Notes: a model not told the origin generated them from the letters alone. Positions 3,701 through 38,310 are shown, counted from the first letter of the stretch. The stretch: 64,000 bases of DNA from Patescibacteria group bacterium (GCA_041656935.1 JBBACQ010000001.1:29459-93458), one strand, 5' to 3'. A program made the numbers and translations.

Positions 3701-4168
3701 CTATCGGGAAAAGTGGGCAAAAGCCTTATTAGACTCGGCCATCTTATGAACAGTCTCTCTTTTCTTAACAGCATTACCTTCACCATTAGAAGCATCCAAA
3801 ATTTCTCCAGCCAACTTTTCTGACATTGACTTCCCTTTTCTAGCCTTAGCCGCATCTATAATCCAATGGCAACCTAAATAAAAACGACGTTCGCCTCTAA
3901 CTTGAAAAGGAACTTGATAATTAGCTCCACCAACTCTTTTACCACGAACCTCTAATAAAGGTGAAACTCTTTTTAAAGCTTTATTAAAAATATGGCGAGG
4001 ATCATGTTTAGTCTCTTGTCTAATAATATCAAAAGTATCATAGACAATATTTTGAGCGACCGATCTCTTACCATCAACCATTAAATAATTTATAAACTTA
4101 GCGACGCTTTTGTCGCCGTATTTCAAATCACTTTCTATATCTCTTTTAGGGGCTTGTTTACCTCTCAT
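3701..4168 (-). CDS. rpsG: 30S ribosomal protein S7
   Basis: 155 aa with typical S7 sequence (VAKFINYLMVDGKRSVAQ...EVRGKRVGGANYQVP). Sits in str operon order. Confidence 0.97.
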   Translation of the reverse strand: MRGKQAPKRDIESDLKYGDKSVAKFINYLMVDGKRSVAQNIVYDTFDIIRQETKHDPRHIFNKALKRVSPLLEVRGKRVGGANYQVPFQVRGERRFYLGCHWIIDAAKARKGKSMSEKLAGEILDASNGEGNAVKKRETVHKMAESNKAFAHFSR

Positions 4169-4227
4169 ATTTTTTAAAATTGCCAGCTATAGCAACTTAT
4201 TATAAATTTATTAAATACTTAACTTAT

Positions 4228-4290
4228 CCCAGCCTTCGCTGGGAAAACAAACAAATGAAAATCTTATTTCTTACTCCAGCTTTCGCCGGA
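4228..4290 (-). promoter_or_regulatory. Twin tetraloop hairpins in the rpsL-rpsG intercistronic spacer (candidate S7 autoregulatory site)
   Basis: On the transcribed minus strand the hairpins are CCCAGC-GAAG-GCUGGG (4243-4228) and UCCGGC-GAAA-GCUGGA (4290-4275). The second needs a G.U pair that would be an A.C mismatch on the other strand. Confidence 0.35.
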
Positions 4291-4311
4291 ATAACAAGCG
4301 AGTAAAAAATC

Positions 4312-4731
4312 CTATTCCTTCGGTTTTTTAGCTCCATAACAACTTCTTCCTTGACGACGTTTTTCAACTCCTTGAGAATCATAAACTCCTCTAACCACCT
4401 TATATCTAACACCTGGTAAATCTTTAGTTTTACCACCTTTTATTAAAATAATAGAGTGCTCTTGCAAATTATGTCCCATTCCCGGAATATAGGCTGTTAC
4501 CTCCATGCCATTAGACAATCGAACACGAGCTATTTTACGTAAGGCTGAGTTCGGCTTTTTAGGAGTCATGGTAGTAACTTTAATACAAACCCCTTGTTTA
4601 AAAGGAGCTCCTTTTTTAGAAACTTTTTTCTTACGATGCAAAGAATCCAAGCTGGTTCTTAGAGCTAAATTTTTCTTTCTTTTAGTAGATGACTTTCGTC
4701 CTTTTCTAACCAATTGATTAATTGTTGGCAT
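4312..4731 (-). CDS. rpsL: 30S ribosomal protein S12
   Basis: [12 protein letters not shown]...[10 protein letters not shown]. The ORF track starts two codons earlier (MFM), and the conserved MPTINQL start is preferred. Confidence 0.97.
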
Positions 4732-4784
4732 AAACAAATATTAATTAAAAACATAAAGACCTATTAAGTCCTTACTATAAAATA

Positions 4785-4813
4785 AATCTAACAAAATTAT
4801 AAAAATAAGTCAA
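4785..4813 (-). promoter_or_regulatory. Candidate sigma70-type promoter of the str operon
   Basis: Minus strand TTGACT (4813-4808), 17-nt spacer, TAGATT (4790-4785), about 50 nt upstream of the rpsL start. Confidence 0.4.
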
Positions 4814-4815
4814 GG

Positions 4816-4847
4816 AAAAAAGGGACAAGTAGAGACTCGCCCCTTTA
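4816..4847 (-). terminator. Rho-independent terminator after the zinc-ribbon ORF
   Basis: Minus-strand RNA GGGGCGAG-ucucua-CUUGUCCC (includes G.U pairs) followed by UUUUUU. Confidence 0.45.
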
Positions 4848-4870
4848 AAACAAAGGAGGGTTGTTTATCT

Positions 4871-5101
4871 TTATTTACTATTACTATTAGTAAATTTTTG
4901 AATATCGTCAAAATGTACCGTACACTTGGCACAAATATAATAATCACAAATAGGAACGAGGTCCGCTGATTTTATTCCCTCTCTATCAATCGGATCGAAA
5001 ACAATTTTCTCATCTTTTCTTTTGTAAATGGGGATATATCGGTTACATCCACAAATTGGGCAACAAAAATTTATCTCAGAAATTGGCCTTTTTTTCGCCA
5101 T
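4871..5101 (-). CDS. Small zinc-ribbon protein (two CxxC pairs)
   Basis: 76 aa with CCPICGC...CDYYICAKC. No recognisable family. Confidence 0.5.
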   Translation of the reverse strand: MAKKRPISEINFCCPICGCNRYIPIYKRKDEKIVFDPIDREGIKSADLVPICDYYICAKCTVHFDDIQKFTNSNSK

Positions 5102-5143
5102 AATTAAATCCTCCCTAATTTAAAAACACATTAAAAGAACAAA

Positions 5144-8424: not shown

Positions 8425-9531
8425 TTAATTATTCTTATTTTTTAATAAATATTTTAGGTAAGACTCAATAAATTCATCTAAATCACCATTAATTACCTCA
8501 TCTAACTTATTAGAGGAAAAACCGGTGCGATGGTCTTTAACCATTTGATAAGGTTGAAAAACATAAGATCTAATTTGTTTTCCCCAAGTCCCCTGCCCAG
8601 CACTACCCTTTATTTTTTGGAGATCAGCTTGATTTTTTTCTTCTTGTAATTGATAAAGTTTAGCCCGTAAAATTTGAAAAGCTTTTTCCTTATTTTGATG
8701 TTGTGATCTCTCACTTTGGCAACTTACACTAACGTTAGTTGGTAGATGAACAATCCTAACAGCTGAATCTGTGGTGTTTACTCCCTGTCCCCCCGGACCC
8801 GAAGATTTATAGACATCAATCCTAATATCTTTTTCTTCAATTTTTATCGCCCCGTCATCTTCAATCTGTGGAATAACCTCTACCCCCGCAAAAGAAGTAT
8901 GACGTAAATCCTCCGAATCAAAAGGAGAAATCCTGACTAAACGATGAACTCCATTTTCACTTCTCAAATTTCCATAAACATACAACCCATTAACTTTTAA
9001 AATTGAGTTTTTAATACCAGCCTCATTGGCTGGGACTCTATCTAAAATTTCCACTTGGAATCCTTTTTTCTCAAAATATCTTAAATACATTCTTTCTAAA
9101 ATCTCAGCCCAATCTTGAGCATCAACTCCACCACTACCAGCATGAATAGATAAAATAGCCCCCTTGTCATCATCTTTCCCAGAAAATAATAAAAAGAATT
9201 CTAATTTTTCAAACTCTTTTTCTAAATCAATTAATTTAATTTCAATATCATTATAAATATTGTCTCCCTCGTTTTCACCTGACAAAACCGCCAACTCTTC
9301 TAAATTTCTAATTTCTTTCTCTAAATTTTCAAAACGATCTATTTCTGTTTTAAAAAATTCAGCCTCTTGGCTAACTTTAACAGCTTGGTCATTATTTTTC
9401 CAAAAATCATCTTTAGCCATTAAAAAATTAAGTTCATTTAACTGAACTTTTTTTCTCTCAATTCCTAAAACCTCTTTAGTCTTTACCACCTTTTCTCGTA
9501 AATCATTTATTTTTTTGATTAAATTTTCCAT
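8425..9531 (-). CDS. prfB: Peptide chain release factor 2
   Basis: SPF tripeptide (RISPFDS) and GGQ (SGPGGQGVNTTDSAVR) motifs. It is a single uninterrupted frame with no +1 frameshift site. The start is placed at MENLIKK (ATG 9531) rather than the GTG at 9561 that overlaps murF. Confidence 0.93.
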   Translation of the reverse strand: MENLIKKINDLREKVVKTKEVLGIERKKVQLNELNFLMAKDDFWKNNDQAVKVSQEAEFFKTEIDRFENLEKEIRNLEELAVLSGENEGDNIYNDIEIKLIDLEKEFEKLEFFLLFSGKDDDKGAILSIHAGSGGVDAQDWAEILERMYLRYFEKKGFQVEILDRVPANEAGIKNSILKVNGLYVYGNLRSENGVHRLVRISPFDSEDLRHTSFAGVEVIPQIEDDGAIKIEEKDIRIDVYKSSGPGGQGVNTTDSAVRIVHLPTNVSVSCQSERSQHQNKEKAFQILRAKLYQLQEEKNQADLQKIKGSAGQGTWGKQIRSYVFQPYQMVKDHRTGFSSNKLDEVINGDLDEFIESYLKYLLKNKNN

Positions 9532-9551
9532 TATATTTTTAGTTTTAAAAA

Positions 9552-10835
9552 TTAACTCCACTGAGAATCTTGTCGCACTAATAATTCTTCGGCTTGACTC
9601 GAATTATTCATAATTTCTTTTACTAATTTCTCTAAACGCACCCCTTGAGAAGCTTTTAATAAAACAATGTCATTAGAAGAGATTCTGTCTTTAACAAAAT
9701 CTTTAGAGGACGAGACATTAGGAAAGACAAAAATATTATCGGGATTAAATCCTTTTTCTTTGGCTCCTCGGCCAATATCTCTGGCCCGTTCTCCAATTAA
9801 AACTAAGAGATCAGCTTTAATTTCGGCTACTTTTTGACCCACCAATTGATGCCCCTCTTCCGTGTAGTGGCCCAACTCTAACATATCACCTAATATAACT
9901 ATTTTCCTATTTTTGGTAGAAATGTTTTTTAAGGTCTCTAGAGCACTTAAAGCTGATTCCGGCGAAGAATTATAAGTATCATCTATCAAAACACTATTTT
10001 TCAGACCCAATAAGATATTCATCCTACCTGGAAGAGGATATATTTTATTTAAATATCCAGCCATTTCAATAAGGTTCAAGCCCAAATGAAACCCAACAAC
10101 TAAGGCTGCTAAAGATGAATAAATTGAAGAAAAACTAATAGCTCGAGGCAAAATAATAGGCACCACCGATCCTCCATGTTCTAATTTAAAATTAATTCCG
10201 CAAAAACTATCAGACAACAAATCACCTGACAGAGAAAAAGAAATATCTTTAGCTAAAAAATCGGCTCCGTCATTTGTCCCGTAATAAAAAGCCTTACTTT
10301 TCAATTCTGGAGAGGCATCTTTTAAATATTTATTATCAAAGTTTAAAACTGCCAAGCCATCTTTTTTCAAATTTTTAACCAATTTTATTTTTTCTTTTTT
10401 TATCTTTTCTAAACTACCGAAATATTCAACATGAGAATGAGAAATATTGGTGATTACTCCAATATCTGGTTTAACAATAGATAATAAATAATCCATATCA
10501 CCACTACGATCAATCCCCATTTCTAAAACTAGAATTTCGGGATAATTTCTATCCTTAAAAAGTAATAGTCTTTTAGCTTCATAAAAAACCTTCAACCAAC
10601 CCCAAAAATTCTTCCCAGGAGACTCTCGGCCAATAATAGATAAGGGCAAACCAAACTCATTATTATAATTTTTAATACTAGATCTAACCCTAAATCTATT
10701 CGACAAAACTAAGGTAATAAATTCTTTAGTACCAGTTTTACCAACACTACCAGTAATACCTACTATTTTAGGTTTATATTTTTTAATAATGGCTCTAGCA
10801 AAAATAGCCAATATTTTTAAGATTATTTTCTTCAT
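9552..10835 (-). CDS. murF: UDP-N-acetylmuramoyl-tripeptide--D-alanyl-D-alanine ligase
   Basis: Mur ligase P-loop GITGSVGKTGTKE and the MurF-type DDTYNSSPES motif. dcw cluster context. Confidence 0.85.
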   Translation of the reverse strand: MKKIILKILAIFARAIIKKYKPKIVGITGSVGKTGTKEFITLVLSNRFRVRSSIKNYNNEFGLPLSIIGRESPGKNFWGWLKVFYEAKRLLLFKDRNYPEILVLEMGIDRSGDMDYLLSIVKPDIGVITNISHSHVEYFGSLEKIKKEKIKLVKNLKKDGLAVLNFDNKYLKDASPELKSKAFYYGTNDGADFLAKDISFSLSGDLLSDSFCGINFKLEHGGSVVPIILPRAISFSSIYSSLAALVVGFHLGLNLIEMAGYLNKIYPLPGRMNILLGLKNSVLIDDTYNSSPESALSALETLKNISTKNRKIVILGDMLELGHYTEEGHQLVGQKVAEIKADLLVLIGERARDIGRGAKEKGFNPDNIFVFPNVSSSKDFVKDRISSNDIVLLKASQGVRLEKLVKEIMNNSSQAEELLVRQDSQWS

Positions 10836-10844
10836 ATTTTTAGA

Positions 10845-12932
10845 TTATTTCCTCTCTTTAGGAATCTGATAATATTTTAGCAGAAAATCAGTAATTTCGC
10901 CAAAGACCGGCACAACTGTCCCCTCGGCAAAAACCGAAGTTTTAGGTTTATCAAATTTTACCAACATTACAAATTTAGGATCATTGATTGGACCATAACC
11001 AACAAAGTTATGAATATATTGATTGGCTAGATAAGCTCCAGAAGGAGATGGAATTTGAGCCGTACCGGTTTTACCCCCAATATAATATCCCTCAATTTTA
11101 GATTTTTTAGCATGCCCCTCTTCAACGACATTAACTAACATGGCTGAGACCGCTTCAGCCGTCTCGGCTGATATCACCTGTCTAACTACTTGAGGCTCAA
11201 CCTTTTTTATTAATTCTCCTTGTTCATCTCTAATTTCATCAACTAAATAGGGTTTCATTAATACTCCTTTATTTGCTATAACCGCATAAGAAGCTAACAT
11301 TTGCAAAGGAGTCACCGCTATCCCCTGGCCGAAAGAAGCCGTAGAAAAATCGATCTCCTTAACTTTATCAGATAATAGGGTTTGTATATTCCCCGGACTC
11401 TCGGAGCTAAGTTCAATCCCGGTTTTTTCTCCGAAACCAAATTTTTGTAAATATTCAGAAAAAACTTTTGCCCCCACCTGATTAGCCGCGAAGATAGCTC
11501 CGGTATTTAAAGAATTTTCTAAAACATAATTCATATCTACCCAACCATGACCGCCACCCTTAGTAGAAAAATCAGAGTTTTTAATCGGCTTAGGCCAGCC
11601 CTTAATATTAACTTGTCCTCGATCTTCATAGTAAGTATTAGGAGTAATCTTCCCTTGGTCAATAGAAATGGCCATAGTGATAGTTTTAAAAACCGATCCC
11701 GGCTCATACTGATAAGAAACAACTTGATTATCAAAAATATTAGGGTCTTCAATAGCTTGATAATTATTAGGATCAAAATTAGGCCAAGTACACATAGCTA
11801 TTATTTTTCCAGTTTGAGGCTCCATAATAGTTATACTCCCACTCTCAAACTTATGTTTATTATAGGCCTCCTCTAGTTTTTGACAAACATACAGTTGAAC
11901 GGCGTAATCAATGGTCAAAACCAAGCTCTGACCTTCTGTCGGAGCTTGATACTCTCTTTTATCAATTACTATTTTAGTGCCACGATAGCTTCCTTTATCG
12001 CCTAGTAAAAAACCATCATCGCCCTTAAGCTCATAATCAAAAAAACCTTCTAAACCATAATTTCCAACATTTTCTAAATTAGAGAAACCTAGGACATTTG
12101 ATAAAAAATTTTTCTCAGGATAATATCGTAAAGACTCCCATTCATAATAGAACCCTGTTATTTCGTTAGAAACATCGCGATCATCAGATAATAATATTTT
12201 TTTATTCTTTATAAGTAAATCAGAAGAAGTACTTAAGGAAAAATCGTCTTTTAAAATATTAAAATAAAGTTCTATTAAATCGTCTTTTTCTATTTTTCTT
12301 CGAACCAAACGGGAATATTTATCAGATACATTAACCTTAAGAAAATATTCATTAATAATATTTTGCTCCCGCTCTTTTATTTCTAAATCCCTTTTCATAT
12401 TACGAAATTCCAACCATTCGGGGTTAAGTTTTAAATCATTATACTTATTCAAAACTTCTTGTTTTCGAATGACCTTATCTTCTTCACCTAAGGACAAAGA
12501 ATCAATATAACCTAAATCATTTTCTATTTCTTTTTTCTCTTCTTCCTCTAAAAATTTATCTACCTCGGCTATGACTGTTTCTCGGTGAAAGACATTAAAA
12601 ACCTCGCCTAAAATAGATAAAATATCCTCTTCACTCAAAGCTCGAGGATTAATATAGATCGAAGCATAGTCTTTGTTCAGGGCTACTGGATAAAGATCAG
12701 AACTATTTTGTTTTAAATAAATTTCTCCTCGGCTCGCCTTTAACTCATTAAAGATTCTATGCTGAGAATCAGCTTTAGCTAAATACTTATCATGATTAGT
12801 AATTTGAACTGAATATAATTTTCCAATCATTGATAAAAAAAATAAAAAAATAATCGCTATTAAGGTATAAAGGCGATTATTTTTAAATTTTATCTCTGAT
12901 GGTTCTTTTCTTTTTGGAATAATCGAAGCCAT
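10845..12932 (-). CDS. ftsI: Penicillin-binding protein 2 / FtsI-type transpeptidase
   Basis: SVFK (SxxK), SLN (SxN) and KTGT motifs with an N-terminal TM anchor. Located between ftsL-like and murF. Confidence 0.88.
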   Translation of the reverse strand: MASIIPKRKEPSEIKFKNNRLYTLIAIIFLFFLSMIGKLYSVQITNHDKYLAKADSQHRIFNELKASRGEIYLKQNSSDLYPVALNKDYASIYINPRALSEEDILSILGEVFNVFHRETVIAEVDKFLEEEEKKEIENDLGYIDSLSLGEEDKVIRKQEVLNKYNDLKLNPEWLEFRNMKRDLEIKEREQNIINEYFLKVNVSDKYSRLVRRKIEKDDLIELYFNILKDDFSLSTSSDLLIKNKKILLSDDRDVSNEITGFYYEWESLRYYPEKNFLSNVLGFSNLENVGNYGLEGFFDYELKGDDGFLLGDKGSYRGTKIVIDKREYQAPTEGQSLVLTIDYAVQLYVCQKLEEAYNKHKFESGSITIMEPQTGKIIAMCTWPNFDPNNYQAIEDPNIFDNQVVSYQYEPGSVFKTITMAISIDQGKITPNTYYEDRGQVNIKGWPKPIKNSDFSTKGGGHGWVDMNYVLENSLNTGAIFAANQVGAKVFSEYLQKFGFGEKTGIELSSESPGNIQTLLSDKVKEIDFSTASFGQGIAVTPLQMLASYAVIANKGVLMKPYLVDEIRDEQGELIKKVEPQVVRQVISAETAEAVSAMLVNVVEEGHAKKSKIEGYYIGGKTGTAQIPSPSGAYLANQYIHNFVGYGPINDPKFVMLVKFDKPKTSVFAEGTVVPVFGEITDFLLKYYQIPKERK

Positions 12933-31195: not shown

Positions 31196-32143
31196 TTAAA
31201 ATTTTCGTTGTCTGGTTCGGTTTTCTAGATATCTCTCAATGGCTTCTTTGGAGGTTAACCAATCCCGGCCCTCTTTATACGCCTCCAGCTTTCCTTGTCT
31301 GGCAAGTAAATTAAGATATTTGGCAGAAAAAGGAGCGGTTTTAGCTATTTCCGCAAGCCTCAAAAATTTTTCCTGTTTTTGTGTTGACGGAGTTAATGTC
31401 TTTAGATAAATATCCAATGAACGCTCGATGGACTGAGCAATAAATTTTACCAGTGGTTCAAACTTACCCTTATCCGATTTATCCAAAACATCATAATATT
31501 TTTTTCGGTCAGTTTTCATGATCGTGACCAATGGATATCCAGCTTGCATCAAAAATAGATTCATCGTTAAGCGTGCCGTTCTACCATTGCCGTCAAAAAA
31601 CGGATGAATATAGACTAATTTATGATGCAATAAAGCAGAAAGTTCAATAATATTCAGTTTGTTTTTTTGTGAGTTTAACCAAATAATTAATTCTCTCATT
31701 TTATTTGGTACTTGTAGCGCATTTGGTGGAATATGGTCTGCGCCACCAATAATTACATTAGCATTTCTATATCGGCCGGCCCATTCCTTATCCGTTTCCT
31801 GCAAAATAATTTGATGTAAGTTTTTAATAAGCATTTCGGAAACAGTGTGTTTTTTGTCTTTATCTATTAAGTCATACAAATATTCTAGTGCGGCATGGTG
31901 GTCTTTCGCTTCCAAATGGTCTTTCAAAGGCTTACCTTTCACTGTCAGGCCTTCATTAATAACTAAAAAGGTCTCTTTTAAAGTTAAAGAGTTGCCTTCA
32001 ATAGCATTTGAGTTATAGGTCATTTCAATTTGGAATTTTTCTCGAAGTTTTTGCACTGCAGACTTAGGTAAGGGGCGCAGTTTGTTGAGTTTGGACAGTT
32101 TTTCTTCCAAACGATTTTTTACGATTGATGATAAGTAAGTCAT
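31196..32143 (-). CDS. fic: Fic family protein (class II, autoinhibited) with C-terminal HTH-like domain
   Basis: Canonical Fic motif HPFFDGNGRTARL. N-terminal inhibitory motif S-N-A-I-E-G ([S/T]xxxE[G/N]). The C-terminus (AKYLNLLARQGKLEAYKEGRDWL) looks like a DNA-binding fold. Confidence 0.9.
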   Translation of the reverse strand: MTYLSSIVKNRLEEKLSKLNKLRPLPKSAVQKLREKFQIEMTYNSNAIEGNSLTLKETFLVINEGLTVKGKPLKDHLEAKDHHAALEYLYDLIDKDKKHTVSEMLIKNLHQIILQETDKEWAGRYRNANVIIGGADHIPPNALQVPNKMRELIIWLNSQKNKLNIIELSALLHHKLVYIHPFFDGNGRTARLTMNLFLMQAGYPLVTIMKTDRKKYYDVLDKSDKGKFEPLVKFIAQSIERSLDIYLKTLTPSTQKQEKFLRLAEIAKTAPFSAKYLNLLARQGKLEAYKEGRDWLTSKEAIERYLENRTRQRKF

Positions 32144-32204: not shown

Positions 32205-32295
32205 GACTGTATATTCAGCTTAGTTTTTGAATAATTCAATGCTTCAAGCGCCGTTTGATCTCTTGCCAGATTAAACAATTTTTTACTCACGCTCA

Positions 32296-32378
32296 GATCA
32301 ACGTTTGCGTATATCTGATGTGCGAAGCATGTGGGCGGAATGACCGCAGGGAGTGGAGCCAGATATACGCTGTTAGGC
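32296..32378 (-). other. attC-like recombination site C (3' end of cassette C)
   Basis: The minus strand reads GCCTAAC-a-GCGTATATCTGG...loop...CAGATATACGC-aaac-GTTGATC. It begins 10 nt after the stop codon of the 264-aa ORF. Confidence 0.65.
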
Positions 32379-32404
32379 GATGTAAATTTTAGACTTTTTT
32401 AAAT
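32372..32404. repeat. Terminal inverted repeat of cassette C, distal arm
   Basis: GTTAGGCGATGTAAATTTTAGACTTTTTTAAAT matches the reverse complement of 33190-33222 at 31 of 33 positions. It overlaps the last 5 codons and the stop of the ORF. Confidence 0.85.
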
Positions 32405-33183
32405 CTCGCGACAAATTCATCTCTTGTCATCACAACTTGTCTTACTTCCGGCTTCTCTCCCGTTGTTAGATATTTTTCCAGAGATCTCTTGTTGTATTGC
32501 AATGCTAAATGTTGAACGGCGGTAACGTCACTATCTTCAGGTGAAATGTCCTGTATTGAAATTTCATCACCCAATAGCATTCTAGCTTTCGCCTCCATTT
32601 TTTGATTAAGTAACCAAGATTTCATAACAATTTTATCTGCTGTGATTTCACCCGCTTCTAATTTAGCCCCTATGGACTGAAAGCCATCTATGATTTTAGA
32701 AATTAGTTCTGCGCTTTCCACGCCCGTTGGCCTGATGTGTAATGAAATTTCATTATTGTTGTCTTTTTTATATGCGATAACATCATTGACATGCACCATG
32801 CCAGACCCTTCTTCCACCTCATCTCTTTTTCTATTCCATTCAGTGAGTAATAGATTGGCGATCGGTGAAGTAGCTAATCTGTCGGCAAAGCTATCTCTGG
32901 AAAAATTATTTTCTTGACATTCCTGTAAAGAGGAATTAATTATTTGATACAATTCTTGTTTTGCTTTGGACTGTTGAGTTTCTTCGCTGGAGCCACTTAA
33001 TCTAGAAACGTAAAGATCAACCATTCTTTCTGTAATTGCATTCGTATCTTCAGCACCTTCGGTATGGAGTAAATTTTGATATAGTTCAAATCCACCAACA
33101 AATCTAATAAACGCAGGATTTGTTAAGATCATATCCCTTGTTCCTTCTTGATGAATTTGTCGCGATTGTTCACCTTCTATCAT
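32389..33183 (-). CDS. Hypothetical protein (cassette C ORF)
   Basis: 264 aa with no recognisable motif. By eye it is richer in G+C and poorer in Lys/Asn/Ile than its neighbours. Confidence 0.6.
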   Translation of the reverse strand: MIEGEQSRQIHQEGTRDMILTNPAFIRFVGGFELYQNLLHTEGAEDTNAITERMVDLYVSRLSGSSEETQQSKAKQELYQIINSSLQECQENNFSRDSFADRLATSPIANLLLTEWNRKRDEVEEGSGMVHVNDVIAYKKDNNNEISLHIRPTGVESAELISKIIDGFQSIGAKLEAGEITADKIVMKSWLLNQKMEAKARMLLGDEISIQDISPEDSDVTAVQHLALQYNKRSLEKYLTTGEKPEVRQVVMTRDEFVARFKKV

Positions 33184-33222: not shown

Positions 33223-33367
33223 ATCGGGCTTAAGGGAAGTTTGATTTTTTCAGAGCTGGAACGCAGATTTTTTGAGGCAACCCACAAAAAATCAAGTGAC
33301 CTCGAAAAAATCAAATTTGGGTCGGAGAAACCTGCAAGGTTTCGGAGCCCTTTAAGCCCTGTTCTAT
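33216..33367 (-). other. attC-like recombination site B (3' end of cassette B)
   Basis: The minus strand reads ATAGAAC-a-GGGCTTAAAGGG...about 110-nt structured loop...CCCTTAAGCCC-gat-GTTAGGC. There is one extra A in the 5' arm. The loop contains nested TTTGATTTTTTC/GAAAAAATCAAA and GATTTTTTG/CAAAAAATC pairings. Confidence 0.65.
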
Positions 33368-33557: not shown

Positions 33558-34049
33558 TTAAATTTCTATTTGAAATATTGCAATAATTAACATAAGAACA
33601 CATGTCAAGGCAAGCGTATAATAATAAAGCCAAGATTGTTTTTTATTATACAGATAATAAATAATTCCAAGAGTCAACATTGTAATTATTATTCCAGCAA
33701 TCCAAGGTGTTTGATATAAAAATAGACCTATTGTAATGAACAAGGTCATTAATGGAACTGTCATAAAAGTTGACTTGTAAATATCCTTTAATTTTAATCG
33801 AAAGAAAAAATAAGAGATTGCCATAATAATAACAAGAAATGAAATATGTAACAATGGTGGAAGCCAGAATAATTGCGAATCAGGATTAAAAGGCATAAAT
33901 AACCCAATAATCCTTCGAATTGTATTTTGATAAAGAGCATCAAAAAGGAATGTTAGAATTAGCAAAATATATCCGAAAACCGCTATGGCTAAAGCTGATA
34001 AAAAACCTTTAATCAAAGGATTCCTAAAAAAGTGCTTTAATTTTCTCAT
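33558..34049 (-). CDS. Hypothetical polytopic membrane protein (cassette B ORF)
   Basis: 163 aa with 4-5 predicted TM helices. No family recognised. Confidence 0.6.
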   Translation of the reverse strand: MRKLKHFFRNPLIKGFLSALAIAVFGYILLILTFLFDALYQNTIRRIIGLFMPFNPDSQLFWLPPLLHISFLVIIMAISYFFFRLKLKDIYKSTFMTVPLMTLFITIGLFLYQTPWIAGIIITMLTLGIIYYLYNKKQSWLYYYTLALTCVLMLIIAIFQIEI

Positions 34050-34105: not shown

Positions 34106-34175
34106 ATTCTCCCCAGTCGTTTTTGTTTTTAGAAAATTGCCCCCGTCGTTAGCCCCTGAAATTATTGAATAGAAC
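34106..34175. repeat. Terminal inverted repeat of cassette B, proximal arm
   Basis: GAATTCTCCCC...GAAAATTGCCCC...CCCCTGAAATTATTGAATAGAAC, the partner of 33361-33516. Confidence 0.7.
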
Positions 34176-34270
34176 GTTTCGGCATATCTGATGTTTGCCG
34201 TAGCGTAGCGGAGGCAAATATGGGTGGAGGCTTTTGTATAAAAGCCGTAACCAGATATGCCGTGTTATGT
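34169..34270 (-). other. attC-like recombination site A (3' end of cassette A)
   Basis: The minus strand reads ACATAAC-ac-GGCATATCTGG...loop with TTTGCC/GGCAAA and GGCTTTT/AAAAGCC sub-hairpins...CAGATATGCC-gaaac-GTTCTAT. Confidence 0.65.
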
Positions 34271-34385
34271 GATGTGCATGTTTTACTTTAATCCCGATAG
34301 CAATCGGGATTGCTCTAAAAAAGAATTTTAATTTTGTTTTTTTGTTTTGAAAAAATGAAAGAGGGGTTAGGGGTGAATTTCATTT
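34262..34385. repeat. Terminal inverted repeat of cassette A, distal arm (about 120 nt)
   Basis: GTTATGTGATGTGCATGTTTTACTTT, then a hairpin, then CTCTAAAAAAGAATTTTAATTTTGTTTTTT and AAAGAGGGGTTAGGGGTG. These match the reverse complement of 37265-37390 block by block. The internal hairpin is replaced by a different hairpin of similar form. Confidence 0.8.
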
Positions 34386-34411
34386 TTTCAAAACTCCTTA
34401 TTTTTTAATGA

Positions 34412-34849
34412 TTATCTATCAGCATCCTTTGCTGCTTTTTCGATCCAGTTTCCCATATTATTATATCCGTCATCATTATTCCATAAATAAAAATCATATC
34501 CGCTTGGGATTCTTCCACATCTTTCAGAAGTATTGCCTTGGAGATCTTTTATTTTGCTTACATCTATTCCTAAAAGTCCATTTCCTATTTCTTTGCTTTT
34601 TTCTATTTCATATTTTACCCACCTGCTGCTACAAGTTTTTTCTCCCACAAGCACAACCGTAACAGATGTTCCTTTTAATTGATTATCAATCCAATTTTTA
34701 ATTGCTTGATCACCTTGTTTTTTTATCTTTTCAAAATCAGCTGCGTCTATAAAGCCCGCAGCTTCTTTTCCTTGTGTTACCCAGCTGTTTCTAACGACCA
34801 TAGCTCGAGAGACATCTTTATATTTGAAACTAAAAAATACTTTTCTCAT
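34412..34849 (-). CDS. TIR-like domain protein (DUF1863 / ThsB-like)
   Basis: 145 aa. The N-terminal KVFFSFKYKDV strand, VVLVGEKTCSSRWVKYEIEKS (SxWVxxEI) and GNGLLGIDVSKIKD match the MTH538/DUF1863 TIR-like pattern as I know it. Confidence 0.78.
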   Translation of the reverse strand: MRKVFFSFKYKDVSRAMVVRNSWVTQGKEAAGFIDAADFEKIKKQGDQAIKNWIDNQLKGTSVTVVLVGEKTCSSRWVKYEIEKSKEIGNGLLGIDVSKIKDLQGNTSERCGRIPSGYDFYLWNNDDGYNNMGNWIEKAAKDADR

Positions 34850-34859
34850 AATTTTAAAT

Positions 34860-35264
34860 TTAATTTATTAAATATATTATAAATAGGGCGGCACTGATTA
34901 AAGGTAAATAAAAAATTAAAAGAGTTGGTGAAAACATAGAGTAGATTTGAGTATTTTTCTTTAATTTTTTATATTCTTCTACATCCATAGAAAAATCTAT
35001 TTCTTCCTCTTTTAGTTTTCTAACATGATTATATAAATCTCTAAACAATCTTTCTTGCGAAAGAAAGTATCCGTCCAAAATCCAAAAAACCAAGGTAATA
35101 ACTATAAGAAAATAAATGACATAATCAGAATTATTTGCCTTTGAAAACAAAGCAAGAAGTGCGCCAATCAAAGTAATAGTCCATCCTCTTAGAAAAAACA
35201 AATTTCCAGCCATTCGGCTAATTATATTTTGTATAAATTCAAGATGTTTGCGTTTATTTTCCAT
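34860..35264 (-). CDS. Small multi-TM protein, candidate membrane effector partner of the TIR-like protein
   Basis: 134 aa. Two adjacent TM helices (WTITLIGALLALF and VIYFLIVITLVFWILDGYF), a charged helix (ERLFRDLYNHVRKLKEEE) and a C-terminal TM. A 10-nt gap separates it from the TIR-like gene. Confidence 0.6.
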   Translation of the reverse strand: MENKRKHLEFIQNIISRMAGNLFFLRGWTITLIGALLALFSKANNSDYVIYFLIVITLVFWILDGYFLSQERLFRDLYNHVRKLKEEEIDFSMDVEEYKKLKKNTQIYSMFSPTLLIFYLPLISAALFIIYLIN

Positions 35265-35267
35265 AGT

Positions 35268-36245
35268 TTATTTTAAATCAGCCATTATTTTTTTTGCTAA
35301 ATGATGAGCAAAATTTACAGCAACAGCATTTCCGATCATTTTATATCCGTCAGCGATATCACGATATTTGAAAATAAAATCATCAGGGAATGTTTGAATC
35401 CTTGCACATTCACGAACAGACAAGCGACGATATAAATGTTCTTTTCCGGGAACAAAAATTCTTTTATTTTGACTGATGAATTTCATTTTCGGAGCTTGCG
35501 GATGAATTGGGGCGTGGCGACCACCAGCTTGAATAGTAAAAGAAGGTTCATCCCATGAGCGGACACGATTTCGTGACATATAAATTGAAGAAAAACCGCC
35601 ATTCATGTATTCGTGATTTGGAATTTTTAACATATCACCATTTGTTTTATTTTTATCTAACGCAGGTTTTGCTAAACGCAAATCATAAATAGCGTCTTTT
35701 AATACGGGTTTATATTTTTGCGGTTCTGGAAATTCAAATTTTTTCTTTAGTTTTTTATTATATCCCACAATAATGACACGCAATCTATCTTCAGGAACAT
35801 CATAATCATTTGCATTCAATAATTTGCAAGAAATATTATATCCAGCATTTTCAAATTCCTTTATTATATTTTCAAAAGCTTCCTTATGTTTTGGATGAAG
35901 GATTCCCGACACATTTTCTGCAAGAAAAAATTTAGGTTGTTTTTCTTTTAACAAACGAATATAATCATAAAATAATTTTCCTCGCTTGTCATTTATCCCA
36001 CGCCCAGCTCCAGCTTCACTCCAACTTTGGCAAGGTGGTCCGCCAATAATTCCGTCAACATCAGGAATTTCAGAAGCGGGAACATCAACAATACTTCTTT
36101 TATCAAGTTTTGTTTTTGGAAAATTATGTTCAAAAGTTTCCCAAATTGTGGGGTCATATTCATTTGCCCAGACGACATGAAAACCAGCTTTTTCAAAGCC
36201 TAGATCAAGTCCTCCTGCACCTGTAAACAATGAAGCTATTTTCAT
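35268..36245 (-). CDS. DNA (cytosine-5)-methyltransferase, M.HaeIII-like (probably GGCC-specific)
   Basis: C5-MTase motifs are FTGAGGLDLGF (I), GGPPCQSWS (IV), ENV (VI) and GNAV (X). The variable region (ALDKNKTNG, PNHEY, MSRNRVR, EHLYRRLSVRECARIQ) is collinear with M.HaeIII as I recall that sequence. Confidence 0.92.
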   Translation of the reverse strand: MKIASLFTGAGGLDLGFEKAGFHVVWANEYDPTIWETFEHNFPKTKLDKRSIVDVPASEIPDVDGIIGGPPCQSWSEAGAGRGINDKRGKLFYDYIRLLKEKQPKFFLAENVSGILHPKHKEAFENIIKEFENAGYNISCKLLNANDYDVPEDRLRVIIVGYNKKLKKKFEFPEPQKYKPVLKDAIYDLRLAKPALDKNKTNGDMLKIPNHEYMNGGFSSIYMSRNRVRSWDEPSFTIQAGGRHAPIHPQAPKMKFISQNKRIFVPGKEHLYRRLSVRECARIQTFPDDFIFKYRDIADGYKMIGNAVAVNFAHHLAKKIMADLK

Positions 36246-36247
36246 AA

Positions 36248-37228
36248 TTATTCGTGACTAATATTTAGTGTATTTTTAAATAATTTTTTCGGCGATTTCA
36301 AAAGGTTTATATCAAATTTCAATGACGATTCAACCCTTGAACTTGCATTATGAATACGAAAAGAAAGAGTCCAATCATTATTCATGGTTACTATCGCAGT
36401 TGTTTGGCTATCGGTTTTGAAACAAATATCAATAATTTCTGTTGGTAGTGGTACTTTGGGGGTTTTATATTTCGGAAGAATGTCGTCAAAAGGCAAATTT
36501 AATGTTCCATTCAAATTGTAGGCGTGTATTTCTACACTATTTTTGCCTTTAATAACTTTGTAAAAATCTTTATTTCCAACGAGGTATGCGACTAAATTGG
36601 ACGCTACTTTTTTAGAATCTTTTTTATATAGATTTTTCAGTTCTTTAATAAAGGCTTTTAAAATTGGAATGTAGATTGATGAATGATAATCACCAAGCTC
36701 ACTCCACTTTTTCTTTGCACCACTTTCTTTTCTAATTTTTTCCAAATTGTTAAAAATAGGTGTAACTGTTTCAAAATATTCTTTTGATGTTTTTATTCCA
36801 AGCCACTTTTCGCCAAAATCAATATTTGAAGATAGTCGGGAATGTTTTACTGCATGATGATTATTTTTTGCAGATACTCCAATTTCCCATTTTTGCAATA
36901 AACGAATTGCTAAAACGTCTCTGACATCGCCTGATTTTCCATGTTGATCTGATAAAATTTCAAGTTGCAGAATATCATCTTTGCCAATATCGTTTGTGAG
37001 GCGTGGCTCTATATCCATTAAAAAATTAACCGCAAAACTAGCGGTGAGCAAATAATCGCTCTTTTCTGTTTCGCTAACATTTTCAAAACAACCTTTTGCA
37101 ATTTCAAAAGAAGAATTTTTGATAACTTCAAGATTTGTTTTGTCTTTCAATTTTTCTTCAAATTGAACAAGCAAAGCATACTCAAAAGATTTTCCAGTTG
37201 TCATTTGTCTTGATGCAGTAGTAGTCAT
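36248..37228 (-). CDS. Putative type II restriction endonuclease cognate to the M.HaeIII-like methylase
   Basis: 326 aa, co-oriented, with a 2-nt gap to the methylase gene. The assignment rests on context and size, and no catalytic motif was identified with confidence. Confidence 0.6.
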   Translation of the reverse strand: MTTTASRQMTTGKSFEYALLVQFEEKLKDKTNLEVIKNSSFEIAKGCFENVSETEKSDYLLTASFAVNFLMDIEPRLTNDIGKDDILQLEILSDQHGKSGDVRDVLAIRLLQKWEIGVSAKNNHHAVKHSRLSSNIDFGEKWLGIKTSKEYFETVTPIFNNLEKIRKESGAKKKWSELGDYHSSIYIPILKAFIKELKNLYKKDSKKVASNLVAYLVGNKDFYKVIKGKNSVEIHAYNLNGTLNLPFDDILPKYKTPKVPLPTEIIDICFKTDSQTTAIVTMNNDWTLSFRIHNASSRVESSLKFDINLLKSPKKLFKNTLNISHE

Positions 37229-37264
37229 ATTTTTATTATTACATTTTTCCCCTTATAAATAAAT

Positions 37265-37390
37265 CGTTTTCGTAGCGGAGCGGAGAAAACACCTTATACC
37301 CCCTTTTAATAAATAAAAAACAAAATTCAAATTCTTTTTTAAAGCTGGGCGATAGCCCAAAAGTAAAACATGCATTTCACATAACTGGTT
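37265..37390. repeat. Terminal inverted repeat of cassette A, proximal arm
   Basis: Partner of 34262-34385. It starts at the attI crossover (ACATAAC, 37379-37385). Confidence 0.8.
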
Positions 37391-37500: not shown

Positions 37501-38310
37501 ATGCAAACTCAATTAAATCTCCTTGAAAGAGAGTTAAAAATTAGAAATTATAGCCCTAAAACCATTAAGGCCTATCTTTATGGTTTAAAAGAGTATCTAA
37601 TATTTAAAAAGGTAAATTTAGATAATTTTGATGAAAATATCATTAAGAATTTTCTTTTAACTTCTCGAATCAAAGCTTCTCCTCAAAGCCAAAATATATA
37701 TCTCGGAGGGATAAAATTTTATTATTACAATATCATTAAAATTAATAAAAAAATAGACATAAAATCAATCAAAAAGACCAAAAAGCTCCCCGTTGTTCTA
37801 TCTCGCCAAGAAATTAAAGAAATATTAAATTCAATTTCAAATGAAAAACATAAATTATTAATAGCAGTATCTTATGGAGCTGGATTAAGAGTAAGTGAAG
37901 CTATTTCTCTGAAAGTCAAAGATATTGATCTAGAGGAGCTGACTATACACATTAAAAACGCTAAGGGGCAAAAAGATCGCATCAGCGTATTACCAGAAAA
38001 ATTAATAAAAAATTTAGAAAAAATAATTAAATTTAAATCTTTAAATGAATATGTTTTTGAGAGTGAGAGAGGCGGGAAATTAACCTCTCGAACTGCTCAA
38101 AAAATTTTTGAAAATAACTTAAAAAAGGCCAAAATAAAAAAAGACGCCACCTTCCATAGCTTACGTCATAGCTTTGCCACTCATCTATTAGAAAACGGCG
38201 TTGATGTTCGTTATGTTCAAGAATTACTTGGTCACCAAAATATCAGAACAACACAAATTTATACTCAAGTCACTAATCCTAAATTAAAAAACATTAAAAG
38301 CCCCTTATAA
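37501..38310 (+). CDS. IntI-like tyrosine recombinase lacking the integron-integrase-specific insertion
   Basis: 269 aa. Catalytic residues are R (GLRVSE), K (KGQKDR), HxxR (HSLRHSF), H (LLGHQN) and Y (IYTQV). It has a SAM-like N-domain (IRNYSPKTIKAY). The blocks KLPVVLSRQEI...GLRVSEAISLKVKDID...KGQKDRISVLPEKL and the C-terminal ..IKSPL are collinear with IntI1 as recalled. Confidence 0.88.
   Translation: MQTQLNLLERELKIRNYSPKTIKAYLYGLKEYLIFKKVNLDNFDENIIKNFLLTSRIKASPQSQNIYLGGIKFYYYNIIKINKKIDIKSIKKTKKLPVVLSRQEIKEILNSISNEKHKLLIAVSYGAGLRVSEAISLKVKDIDLEELTIHIKNAKGQKDRISVLPEKLIKNLEKIIKFKSLNEYVFESERGGKLTSRTAQKIFENNLKKAKIKKDATFHSLRHSFATHLLENGVDVRYVQELLGHQNIRTTQIYTQVTNPKLKNIKSPL

Follow-up and report, generated by a model that had tools for sequence, protein, structure and literature searches.

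A TIR protein and a small three-pass membrane protein encoded in a Patescibacteria genome probably constitute a type V Thoeris system in an integron-like setting

Two adjacent genes of a Patescibacteria genome, encoding proteins of 134 and 145 amino acids, make up, with a probability of about 0.85, an anti-phage system that belongs to type V Thoeris and has the gene order thsF, thsB. They lie in a stretch of 64,000 nucleotides from a metagenome-assembled genome (MAG) of a Patescibacteria group bacterium (GCA_041656935.1, JBBACQ010000001.1:29459-93458; G+C content 31%), which is referred to as the window, all positions being counted from its first nucleotide. The open reading frame (ORF) of thsF spans positions 34860-35264 and that of thsB positions 34412-34849; both start with ATG, are located on the minus strand and are separated by 10 nucleotides (nt). 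An earlier note, made from the sequence alone, had described both ORFs and quoted motifs from the encoded proteins, and all of these are present. Our assignment is based on the ORFs, their domains, the alignment of the catalytic residue, homology to a validated pair, adjacency of the two genes and purifying selection. Such pairs are already known as type V Thoeris and, in PADLOC, as the candidate PDC-M50, and the copy in the window is an ordinary member; the value of the finding lies in annotation, as it gives the names thsF and thsB to two 'hypothetical proteins' of a Patescibacteria genome.

The 145-amino acid protein matches the Pfam family ThsB_TIR (PF08937, the former DUF1863) with E=1.5e-23 (83.5 bits, cutoff 21.2), the PADLOC ThsB model PDLC00431 with E=3.7e-56 and the PADLOC model PDC-M50B with E=2.7e-47. 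Residues 2-135 further match the solved structures of ThsB from Bacillus cereus MSX-D12 (PDB 6LHY/9B7D; E=3e-28), bearing out the TIR-like (DUF1863) character that had been proposed for the protein. It contains the motifs KVFFSFKYKDV, SSRWVKYEIEKS (with Glu at residues 81 and 83) and GNGLLGIDV, and a Kyte-Doolittle analysis revealed no hydrophobic segment. In the alignment with B. cereus ThsB, Glu81 of the RWVKYEIEKS motif (codon GAA, positions 34607-34609, minus strand) pairs with E85 of RWVRYEIMKS, confirming the conserved Glu that had been pointed out before; the E85Q substitution in B. cereus ThsB abolishes defence (Ofir et al., bioRxiv 10.1101/2021.01.06.425286). By sequence the protein is thus a stand-alone, ThsB-type TIR protein with a conserved predicted catalytic Glu81, presumed to act both as infection sensor and as signal synthase.

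The 134-amino acid protein exhibits three hydrophobic segments in the Kyte-Doolittle plot (residues ~22-41, ~47-66 and ~110-133) and carries the charged motif ERLFRDLYNHVRKLKEEE. We modelled it as a monomer with AlphaFold2, using 96 diverse homologues (pLDDT 95.9, pTM 0.86). The model comprises helices 2-40, 46-83, 106-110 and 113-133, so that hydropathy and structure prediction agree on the three transmembrane (TM) helices suggested earlier. Helix 2-40 corresponds to an amphipathic N-terminus running into TM1, and helix 46-83 to TM2, which continues into the charged segment; residues 67-108 form a charged helix and a structured loop with a conserved DFSM motif, followed by TM3 (helix 113-133). 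According to the positive-inside rule the basic N-terminus (K4, R5, K6, H7 and R17) and segment 67-108 should face the cytoplasm. None of the 96 homologues deviates at R17 or E71, and K4, H7, Q12, K26, G27, W28, F60, W61, D64, Y78 and S112 are nearly invariant; R17, K26, G27, W28, F60, W61, D64, E71, Y78 and S112 cluster at this predicted cytoplasmic membrane interface.

Four PDC-M50A models of PADLOC-DB match the protein, the best with E=8e-47. Pfam and NCBIfam leave it unnamed: the best match, 8xMP (PF24838), has an E value of 5e-4 and is below threshold, and DUF2270 (PF10028) yields E=0.064 in hmmscan (13.3 bits, cutoff 25). Both similarities extend over the full length of ThsF but are weak and below the gathering thresholds. 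Among the 96 homologues neither family exceeds its threshold, with seven touching DUF2270 (best E=1.4e-5); the ThsF family as such is missed by Pfam-A hmmscan. A sequence search of the PDB with ThsF found nothing, and a Foldseek search of the PDB with the model returned no match at E<=0.001, the top entry being 4DCI, a protein of unknown function (E=1.1). We also observed three natural fusions with a ThsF-like module at the C-terminus, namely to an N-terminal SLOG cluster-2 domain (PF18163, E=1.7e-15; P0183, 378 amino acids), to an N-terminal 8xMP domain (PF24838, E=1.6e-27; P0220, 351 amino acids) and to an unannotated N-terminal region of 225 amino acids (P0190, 362 amino acids). The SLOG fusion speaks for the 3TM module being an output under the control of nucleotide sensing.

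Type V Thoeris has been described as a TIR protein paired with a three-TM effector, ThsF, annotated as DUF2270 (Yirmiya et al., bioRxiv 10.64898/2025.12.03.692087, Dec 2025). In that study the B. thuringiensis DAR 81934 system protected B. subtilis, and infection was required for its TIR protein to make 3' cyclic ADP-ribose (3'cADPR). Cells containing the system were arrested by added 3'cADPR but by neither 2'cADPR nor cADPR, and defence was lowered by Tad1, a sponge for 3'cADPR; validated type V systems function as two genes (Yirmiya et al.). In Table S1 three TIR proteins of cluster 2612507145 (IMG 2700869427, 2642724563 and 2265063291) are listed as 'DUF2270 - Type V', and these look, by eye, ~85-90% identical to the TIR protein of the window, which belongs to the same cluster. 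As the DUF2270 label was not reproduced by Pfam, we tested the link to the effector directly and used the TIR sequence that Table S1 gives for B. thuringiensis to retrieve its locus. A protein 100% identical to ThsB of B. thuringiensis DAR 81934 (P0271) is directly followed by a gene (L012:4773-5198) for a protein of 141 amino acids that matches PDC-M50A with E=1.8e-48 and shares 48% identity over 122 residues with the 134-amino acid protein of the window (E=1e-37). This validated ThsF does not match PF10028 in hmmscan either, which makes the DUF2270 label unusable as a membership criterion with HMMER; the label probably comes from a more sensitive method. Homology to ThsF, in turn, is usable for this purpose, and the window protein is, judged by its sequence, such a homologue.

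Like type V Thoeris, the pair is an operon of two genes, one for a stand-alone TIR protein and the other for a three-TM effector of ~135-140 amino acids. It differs from the B. thuringiensis system in gene order, which is effector then TIR in the window and TIR then effector in B. thuringiensis, and in its TIR protein, which has 145 amino acids (cluster 2612507145) as opposed to 252 amino acids (cluster 2734579397). The matches to PDC-M50A (8e-47) and PDC-M50B (2.7e-47) in PADLOC-DB v2 mean that this database had the pair among its candidate defence systems as early as 2023, although this label denotes a bioinformatic candidate only; a literature search for PDC-M50 found no mention in the papers covered, and one for 8xMP gave only irrelevant papers. 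The proposal of the earlier note that a TIR signal generator is coupled to a minimal membrane effector in an abortive infection system is therefore matched by a homologous system, validated independently in late 2025, whose effector is 48% identical, while its statement that the pair fits no named system is contradicted by PDC-M50 and type V Thoeris.

Several observations weigh against assigning the pair to type V Thoeris. DUF2270 is detected in the window protein only at E=0.064 and by hmmscan not at all in the validated ThsF, and the window TIR cluster (2612507145) differs from the one in which a 3'cADPR-activated effector was demonstrated (2734579397). A second type V system made 3'cADPR without responding to added 3'cADPR, and a type V system of Vibrio cholerae gave no defence in Escherichia coli (Yirmiya et al.). 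In addition, the PDB holds no fold similar to the ThsF model, our structure prediction covers the monomer, the oligomer being assumed by analogy, and the window copy, from a Patescibacteria MAG, is known as sequence alone.

Other named systems fit less well. The TIR protein is homologous to that of type I Thoeris from B. cereus MSX-D12, with the catalytic Glu retained and probably the same messenger, 3'cADPR; in contrast to type I Thoeris, however, the window pair is not accompanied by a SIR2-SLOG ThsA, and its effector is predicted to act on the membrane rather than on NAD+. We scanned the neighbouring genes with Pfam and found no SIR2, SLOG or second TIR domain, and a limited phmmer search with one SIR2 and one SLOG query found none among the ORFs of the window. 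This agrees with the previous remark that a SIR2/SLOG ThsA partner is missing, and type I was rejected on these grounds. Type II Thoeris (TM plus Macro, ThsC), type VII Thoeris (SLATT, ThsH) and the TM effectors of CBASS and Pycsar share the same logic of a nucleotide-derived signal that acts on an oligomerising membrane effector, but ThsF is of a different family and has no separate ligand-binding domain. Types II and VII were rejected, since neither Macro nor SLATT matched the 134-amino acid protein in the Pfam scan. The parallel formerly drawn to the 2TM-1TM-TIR arrangement did not hold as membership: Rst_2TM_1TM_TIR consists of 2TM, 1TM and TIR genes, the pair comprises only two genes, and PADLOC returned no model of that system, the only models matching the pair being PDC-M50, ThsB, TIR-NLR and NsnC.

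Co-occurrence of the two genes beyond this locus had been named as one of the points on which the proposal could fail. We compared 80 genome loci (L014-L093), contigs with one genome per species that were found with an alignment of closer ThsF homologues. In 74 of them, bearing out the co-occurrence, a TIR ORF on the same strand is directly adjacent to thsF, usually no more than ~30 nt away; larger negative gaps arise artificially, from ORFs being extended up to the first start codon. Counted from the per-locus list, the TIR gene follows thsF in 63 loci and precedes it in 11. The six exceptions comprise one truncated thsF, one contig ending at the gene and four apparently orphan thsF genes, which have no TIR gene within 4 kb (L062, L071, L075 and L076). 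The 134-amino acid protein itself has an identical record in MAGs of Patescibacteria, which belong to the candidate phyla radiation (CPR), and wherever the identical ThsF is encoded the 145-amino acid TIR gene follows immediately (6/6 contigs). A tblastn search of plasmids with ThsF gave 143 records, and in all four plasmid loci that we examined, from Bacillota and Gammaproteobacteria (Priestia megaterium, Terribacillus goriensis, Klebsiella pneumoniae pCuAs and Vibrio chagasii), a ThsF homologue abuts a TIR gene. The P. megaterium plasmid p1 (L007, 2310-6647) carries a dcm methyltransferase gene, thsF and two consecutive TIR genes, and the V. chagasii plasmid p1 (L011) carries two thsF-TIR pairs ~1.5 kb apart (921-2533 and 4001-5132). 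NCBI labels every thsF homologue at these plasmid loci 'hypothetical protein'.

The partner TIR proteins of the 80 loci range from 115 to 265 amino acids and fall, by best match, into at least six lineages. Similarity of ThsF and similarity of the TIR protein to their counterparts in the window are uncoupled across the genome loci: ThsF proteins 84-92% identical to that of the window adjoin TIR proteins that are only 26-45% identical (local alignment), and TIR proteins 76-88% identical to that of the window adjoin ThsF proteins that are only 55-72% identical. Judged from these comparisons, the uncoupled similarities indicate frequent shuffling of the sensor. Such reshuffled pairing would be explained by a modular exchange of sensors on a common effector, and the combination of a single effector lineage with TIR proteins of many lineages argues that these sensors share a signal.

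ThsF is strongly conserved in the CPR, where its amino acid identity amounts to 80-92% despite synonymous divergence (dS) of ~0.9-1.7, which is nearing saturation. The ratio of nonsynonymous to synonymous substitution rates (dN/dS) relative to CPR relatives is 0.06-0.08 for thsF (dS 0.9-1.7) and <=0.06 for thsB, with dS being saturated in most thsB pairs. These low values reflect strong purifying selection, indicating that both genes are functional. The family is very large and comprises 1948 clusters of relatives at 90% identity (E<=1e-3) and 3984 clusters, i.e. ~4000, at 50% identity (E<=1e-3), 1984 of which have E<=1e-10. The number of relatives together with the low dN/dS shows that thsF and thsB are not chance ORFs. 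The size of the family, its strong conservation in CPR and its absence from Pfam annotation add to what the assignment itself provides. In IMG/VR eight viral contigs (L094-L101) contain distant ThsF homologues with 37-68% identity over the matched part, and the small number found in this pattern-limited scan suggests that, as far as seen, the system is not mainly phage-borne.

On the model of the validated homologues, from which we take over what triggers the system, which signal it uses, that ThsF oligomerises and that the membrane is disrupted, ThsB would sense phage infection, and its TIR domain would, via Glu81, convert NAD+ to an ADP-ribose-derived messenger, most likely 3'cADPR. ThsF is predicted to be a three-pass inner-membrane protein forming a ring-shaped homo-oligomer; ThsF has been modelled with AlphaFold3 as a heptamer, a ring-shaped homo-oligomer with positively charged pockets between the protomers (Yirmiya et al.). 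The messenger would bind to the conserved charged cytoplasmic face of ThsF, at the charged pockets between protomers, and the assembly would then compromise the membrane, so that growth stops or the cell dies before phage progeny is released. The overall scheme, in which a messenger made by the TIR protein activates an oligomeric membrane assembly of ThsF, is by analogy very probably correct.

Exchanging the roles of the two proteins would turn the TIR protein into an NAD+-depleting effector and the membrane protein into its sensor, anchor or regulator, with no diffusible signal. Many bacterial TIR proteins do deplete NAD+, as in CBASS, Pycsar, TIR-pAgo and AVAST (Yirmiya et al.), and the sequence by itself would be compatible with such roles. 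Nevertheless, the TIR protein of the window is of the ThsB type, a homologous TIR protein alone yielded the signal on infection, and a sponge for the signal cut defence. Moreover, added signal was toxic to cells harbouring the whole two-gene homologous system (the effector being expressed only as part of it), and in the SLOG-ThsF fusion the 3TM module is placed downstream of a nucleotide sensor. We thus consider this exchange of roles highly improbable and retain the scheme in which ThsB signals to ThsF.

The identity of the messenger is less firmly supported than the scheme. By analogy we lean towards 3'cADPR as the specific signal, as type I Thoeris TIR proteins make 3'cADPR (Yirmiya et al.) and the closest solved relative of the window TIR protein is ThsB of B. 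cereus MSX-D12 (E=3e-28), a type I protein. We do so with restraint because the window TIR protein is from a different cluster than the biochemically characterised one from B. thuringiensis and because one type V effector was unresponsive to 3'cADPR (Yirmiya et al.). The same architecture could instead operate with another messenger (2'cADPR, cADPR, His-ADPR, N7-cADPR or an undescribed derivative) and would then represent a signalling sub-variant of type V. Besides the difference in cluster and the unresponsive effector, this would be in line with the pairing of closely related ThsF proteins with TIR proteins of at least six lineages, and with the fact that TIR proteins of the same cluster are also found in type III Thoeris and beside SLOG-patatin effectors. 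On the other hand, both type V TIR proteins that were assayed made 3'cADPR (Yirmiya et al.), and a shared signal is the simplest explanation for one conserved effector being combined with many lineages of TIR proteins. A messenger other than 3'cADPR is hence possible, yet we deem it rather unlikely, and 3'cADPR remains the candidate that we favour.

The gene pair constitutes the last two genes of a run of four tightly packed genes on the minus strand, which encode a HaeIII-family type II restriction endonuclease (36248-37228; Pfam RE_HaeIII, E=7e-97; PADLOC REase_II, E=2.8e-100), a C5 cytosine DNA methyltransferase (35268-36245; Pfam DNA_methylase, E=2e-98), ThsF and ThsB, with gaps of 2, 3 and 10 nt, the methyltransferase gene ending 3 nt upstream of thsF. 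A scan of the locus for promoters and terminators gave results not above shuffled expectation and thus says nothing on operon structure. The common strand and the narrow gaps might suggest that all four genes form one functionally coupled system, all the more so as the block that starts within the restriction gene and extends through a structured element downstream of thsB is 100% identical in the related locus L001 and as a dcm methyltransferase gene precedes thsF on the P. megaterium plasmid, too. However, a related methyltransferase is encoded in only 4 of the 80 ThsF loci and a HaeIII-type enzyme in only 2, and validated type V systems work with two genes. In addition, the restriction-modification (R-M) pair of loci L022 and L023 is 99% identical in protein to that of the window, whereas thsF is only 81-82% identical, and the TIR protein is 57% identical in L023 and of another lineage in L022. 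In these two loci the R-M pair has hardly changed, while the Thoeris module behind it, or only its sensor, has been exchanged. Functional coupling of the R-M and Thoeris genes is therefore quite improbable, and in view of the low co-occurrence and the swapped modules it was rejected; we regard the restriction endonuclease and the methyltransferase as context of a two-gene type V Thoeris system.

The region downstream of thsB contains a structured element (~34165-34411), the core of which is an imperfect palindrome resembling the attC sites of integrons (34165-34283, minus strand) that marks the 3' boundary of the block of R-M and Thoeris genes. In the core, an R''-like ACATAAC and AC precede a 12-bp stem, which is followed by two variable hairpins, by the return stem and finally by GAAAC and GTT. 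The DNA fold of the core has a z value of -4.9, and its outer stem shows compensatory changes between copies. We built a covariance model, R1, from five copies, which scores the site downstream of thsB with 140.9 bits and a second site of the window (32292-32391, minus strand) with 74.9 bits (E=7e-16); a third, weak site was found at 33224-33359 (minus strand). In related loci R1 finds nine copies, which flank gene groups in L001 (4074-4186, 6982-7100 and 8628-8747), L023 (1775-1888 and 5027-5133), L022 (20-135) and L059 (1525-1665, 3830-3903 and 6729-6808). Rfam gave only chance-level matches for the intergenic element, and a scan of the whole 64-kb window found no Rfam family, tRNA included, at gathering score.

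On the other side of the gene block the window encodes a tyrosine recombinase of 269 amino acids (37501-38310, plus strand; Pfam Phage_integrase and SAM_4), which is divergent from the block. It scores 215.2 bits with NCBIfam NF040815, 'tyrosine recombinase/integron integrase' (recomb_XerA_Arch; cutoff 220), and 213 bits with TIGR02249, integron integrase (cutoff 265), the latter match being split into two stretches, which suggests that the IntI-specific insertion is missing. Between recombinase and restriction gene lies a leader that begins with GTTATGTG (37259-37385, minus strand) and is homologous to the sequence following attC-like sites in L001, with identities of 85% and 83% to L001 7090-7220 and 8979-9053 (blastn). 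The sequence of L001 is 100% identical to that of the window from position 37090, inside the restriction gene, to ...AAACGTT at position 34173, and the L001 sequence next to this break is homologous to the window leader beginning with GTTATGTG. This break in identity corresponds to the pattern expected for cassette exchange with a crossover at G|TT. The counterpart of the recombinase gene in L001 is only ~68% identical in DNA, with the cassette beside it being 100% identical.

The locus resembles integrons in that a divergent tyrosine recombinase gene stands next to gene groups on one strand and that an imperfect palindrome, with RYYYAAC-like and GTT ends that recall attC sites, follows each group. 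It departs from a canonical integron in that the recombinase apparently lacks the IntI-specific insertion and scores below both NCBIfam cutoffs, that the spacers between the R and L elements of the attC-like sites are unequal or atypical, and that only two or three sites are present in the window. Hence the locus looks integron-like from its sequence features, short of the canonical criteria, and the attC-like palindrome may be the recombination site of an integron-like cassette array. In the papers covered, integrons, attC and Patescibacteria come up together only in surveys of resistomes or beta-lactamases. In the array of L001 a further attC-like site is followed by a gene for a GmrSD-type (DUF262/DUF1524) restriction enzyme (9098-10966), and a YafQ-like toxin is encoded beside the recombinase gene (2204-2464); both mark the array as a defence island. 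Taken together, these surroundings suggest that defence cassettes are mobilised in an integron-like manner in CPR genomes. Tentatively, and with somewhat less than even confidence, we propose that type V Thoeris and HaeIII-type R-M genes of Patescibacteria move as a multi-gene cassette bounded by attC-like sites between integron-like platforms with a short XerA/IntI-like recombinase, with the TIR gene being swapped and thsF being kept. If true, this would amount to an integron-type 'defence biobank' in the CPR that employs a non-canonical integrase.

Three further genes follow downstream of the Thoeris pair on the minus strand. The first (33558-34049) encodes a multi-TM protein of 163 amino acids without a match in Pfam or PADLOC, and the weak attC-like site follows it; the second (32389-33183) encodes a protein of 264 amino acids, likewise without a Pfam or PADLOC match, which is followed by the second attC-like site. 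These two genes may be further cassettes. The third gene downstream of the pair (31196-32143) encodes a protein that combines a Fic/DOC domain with a helix-turn-helix motif.

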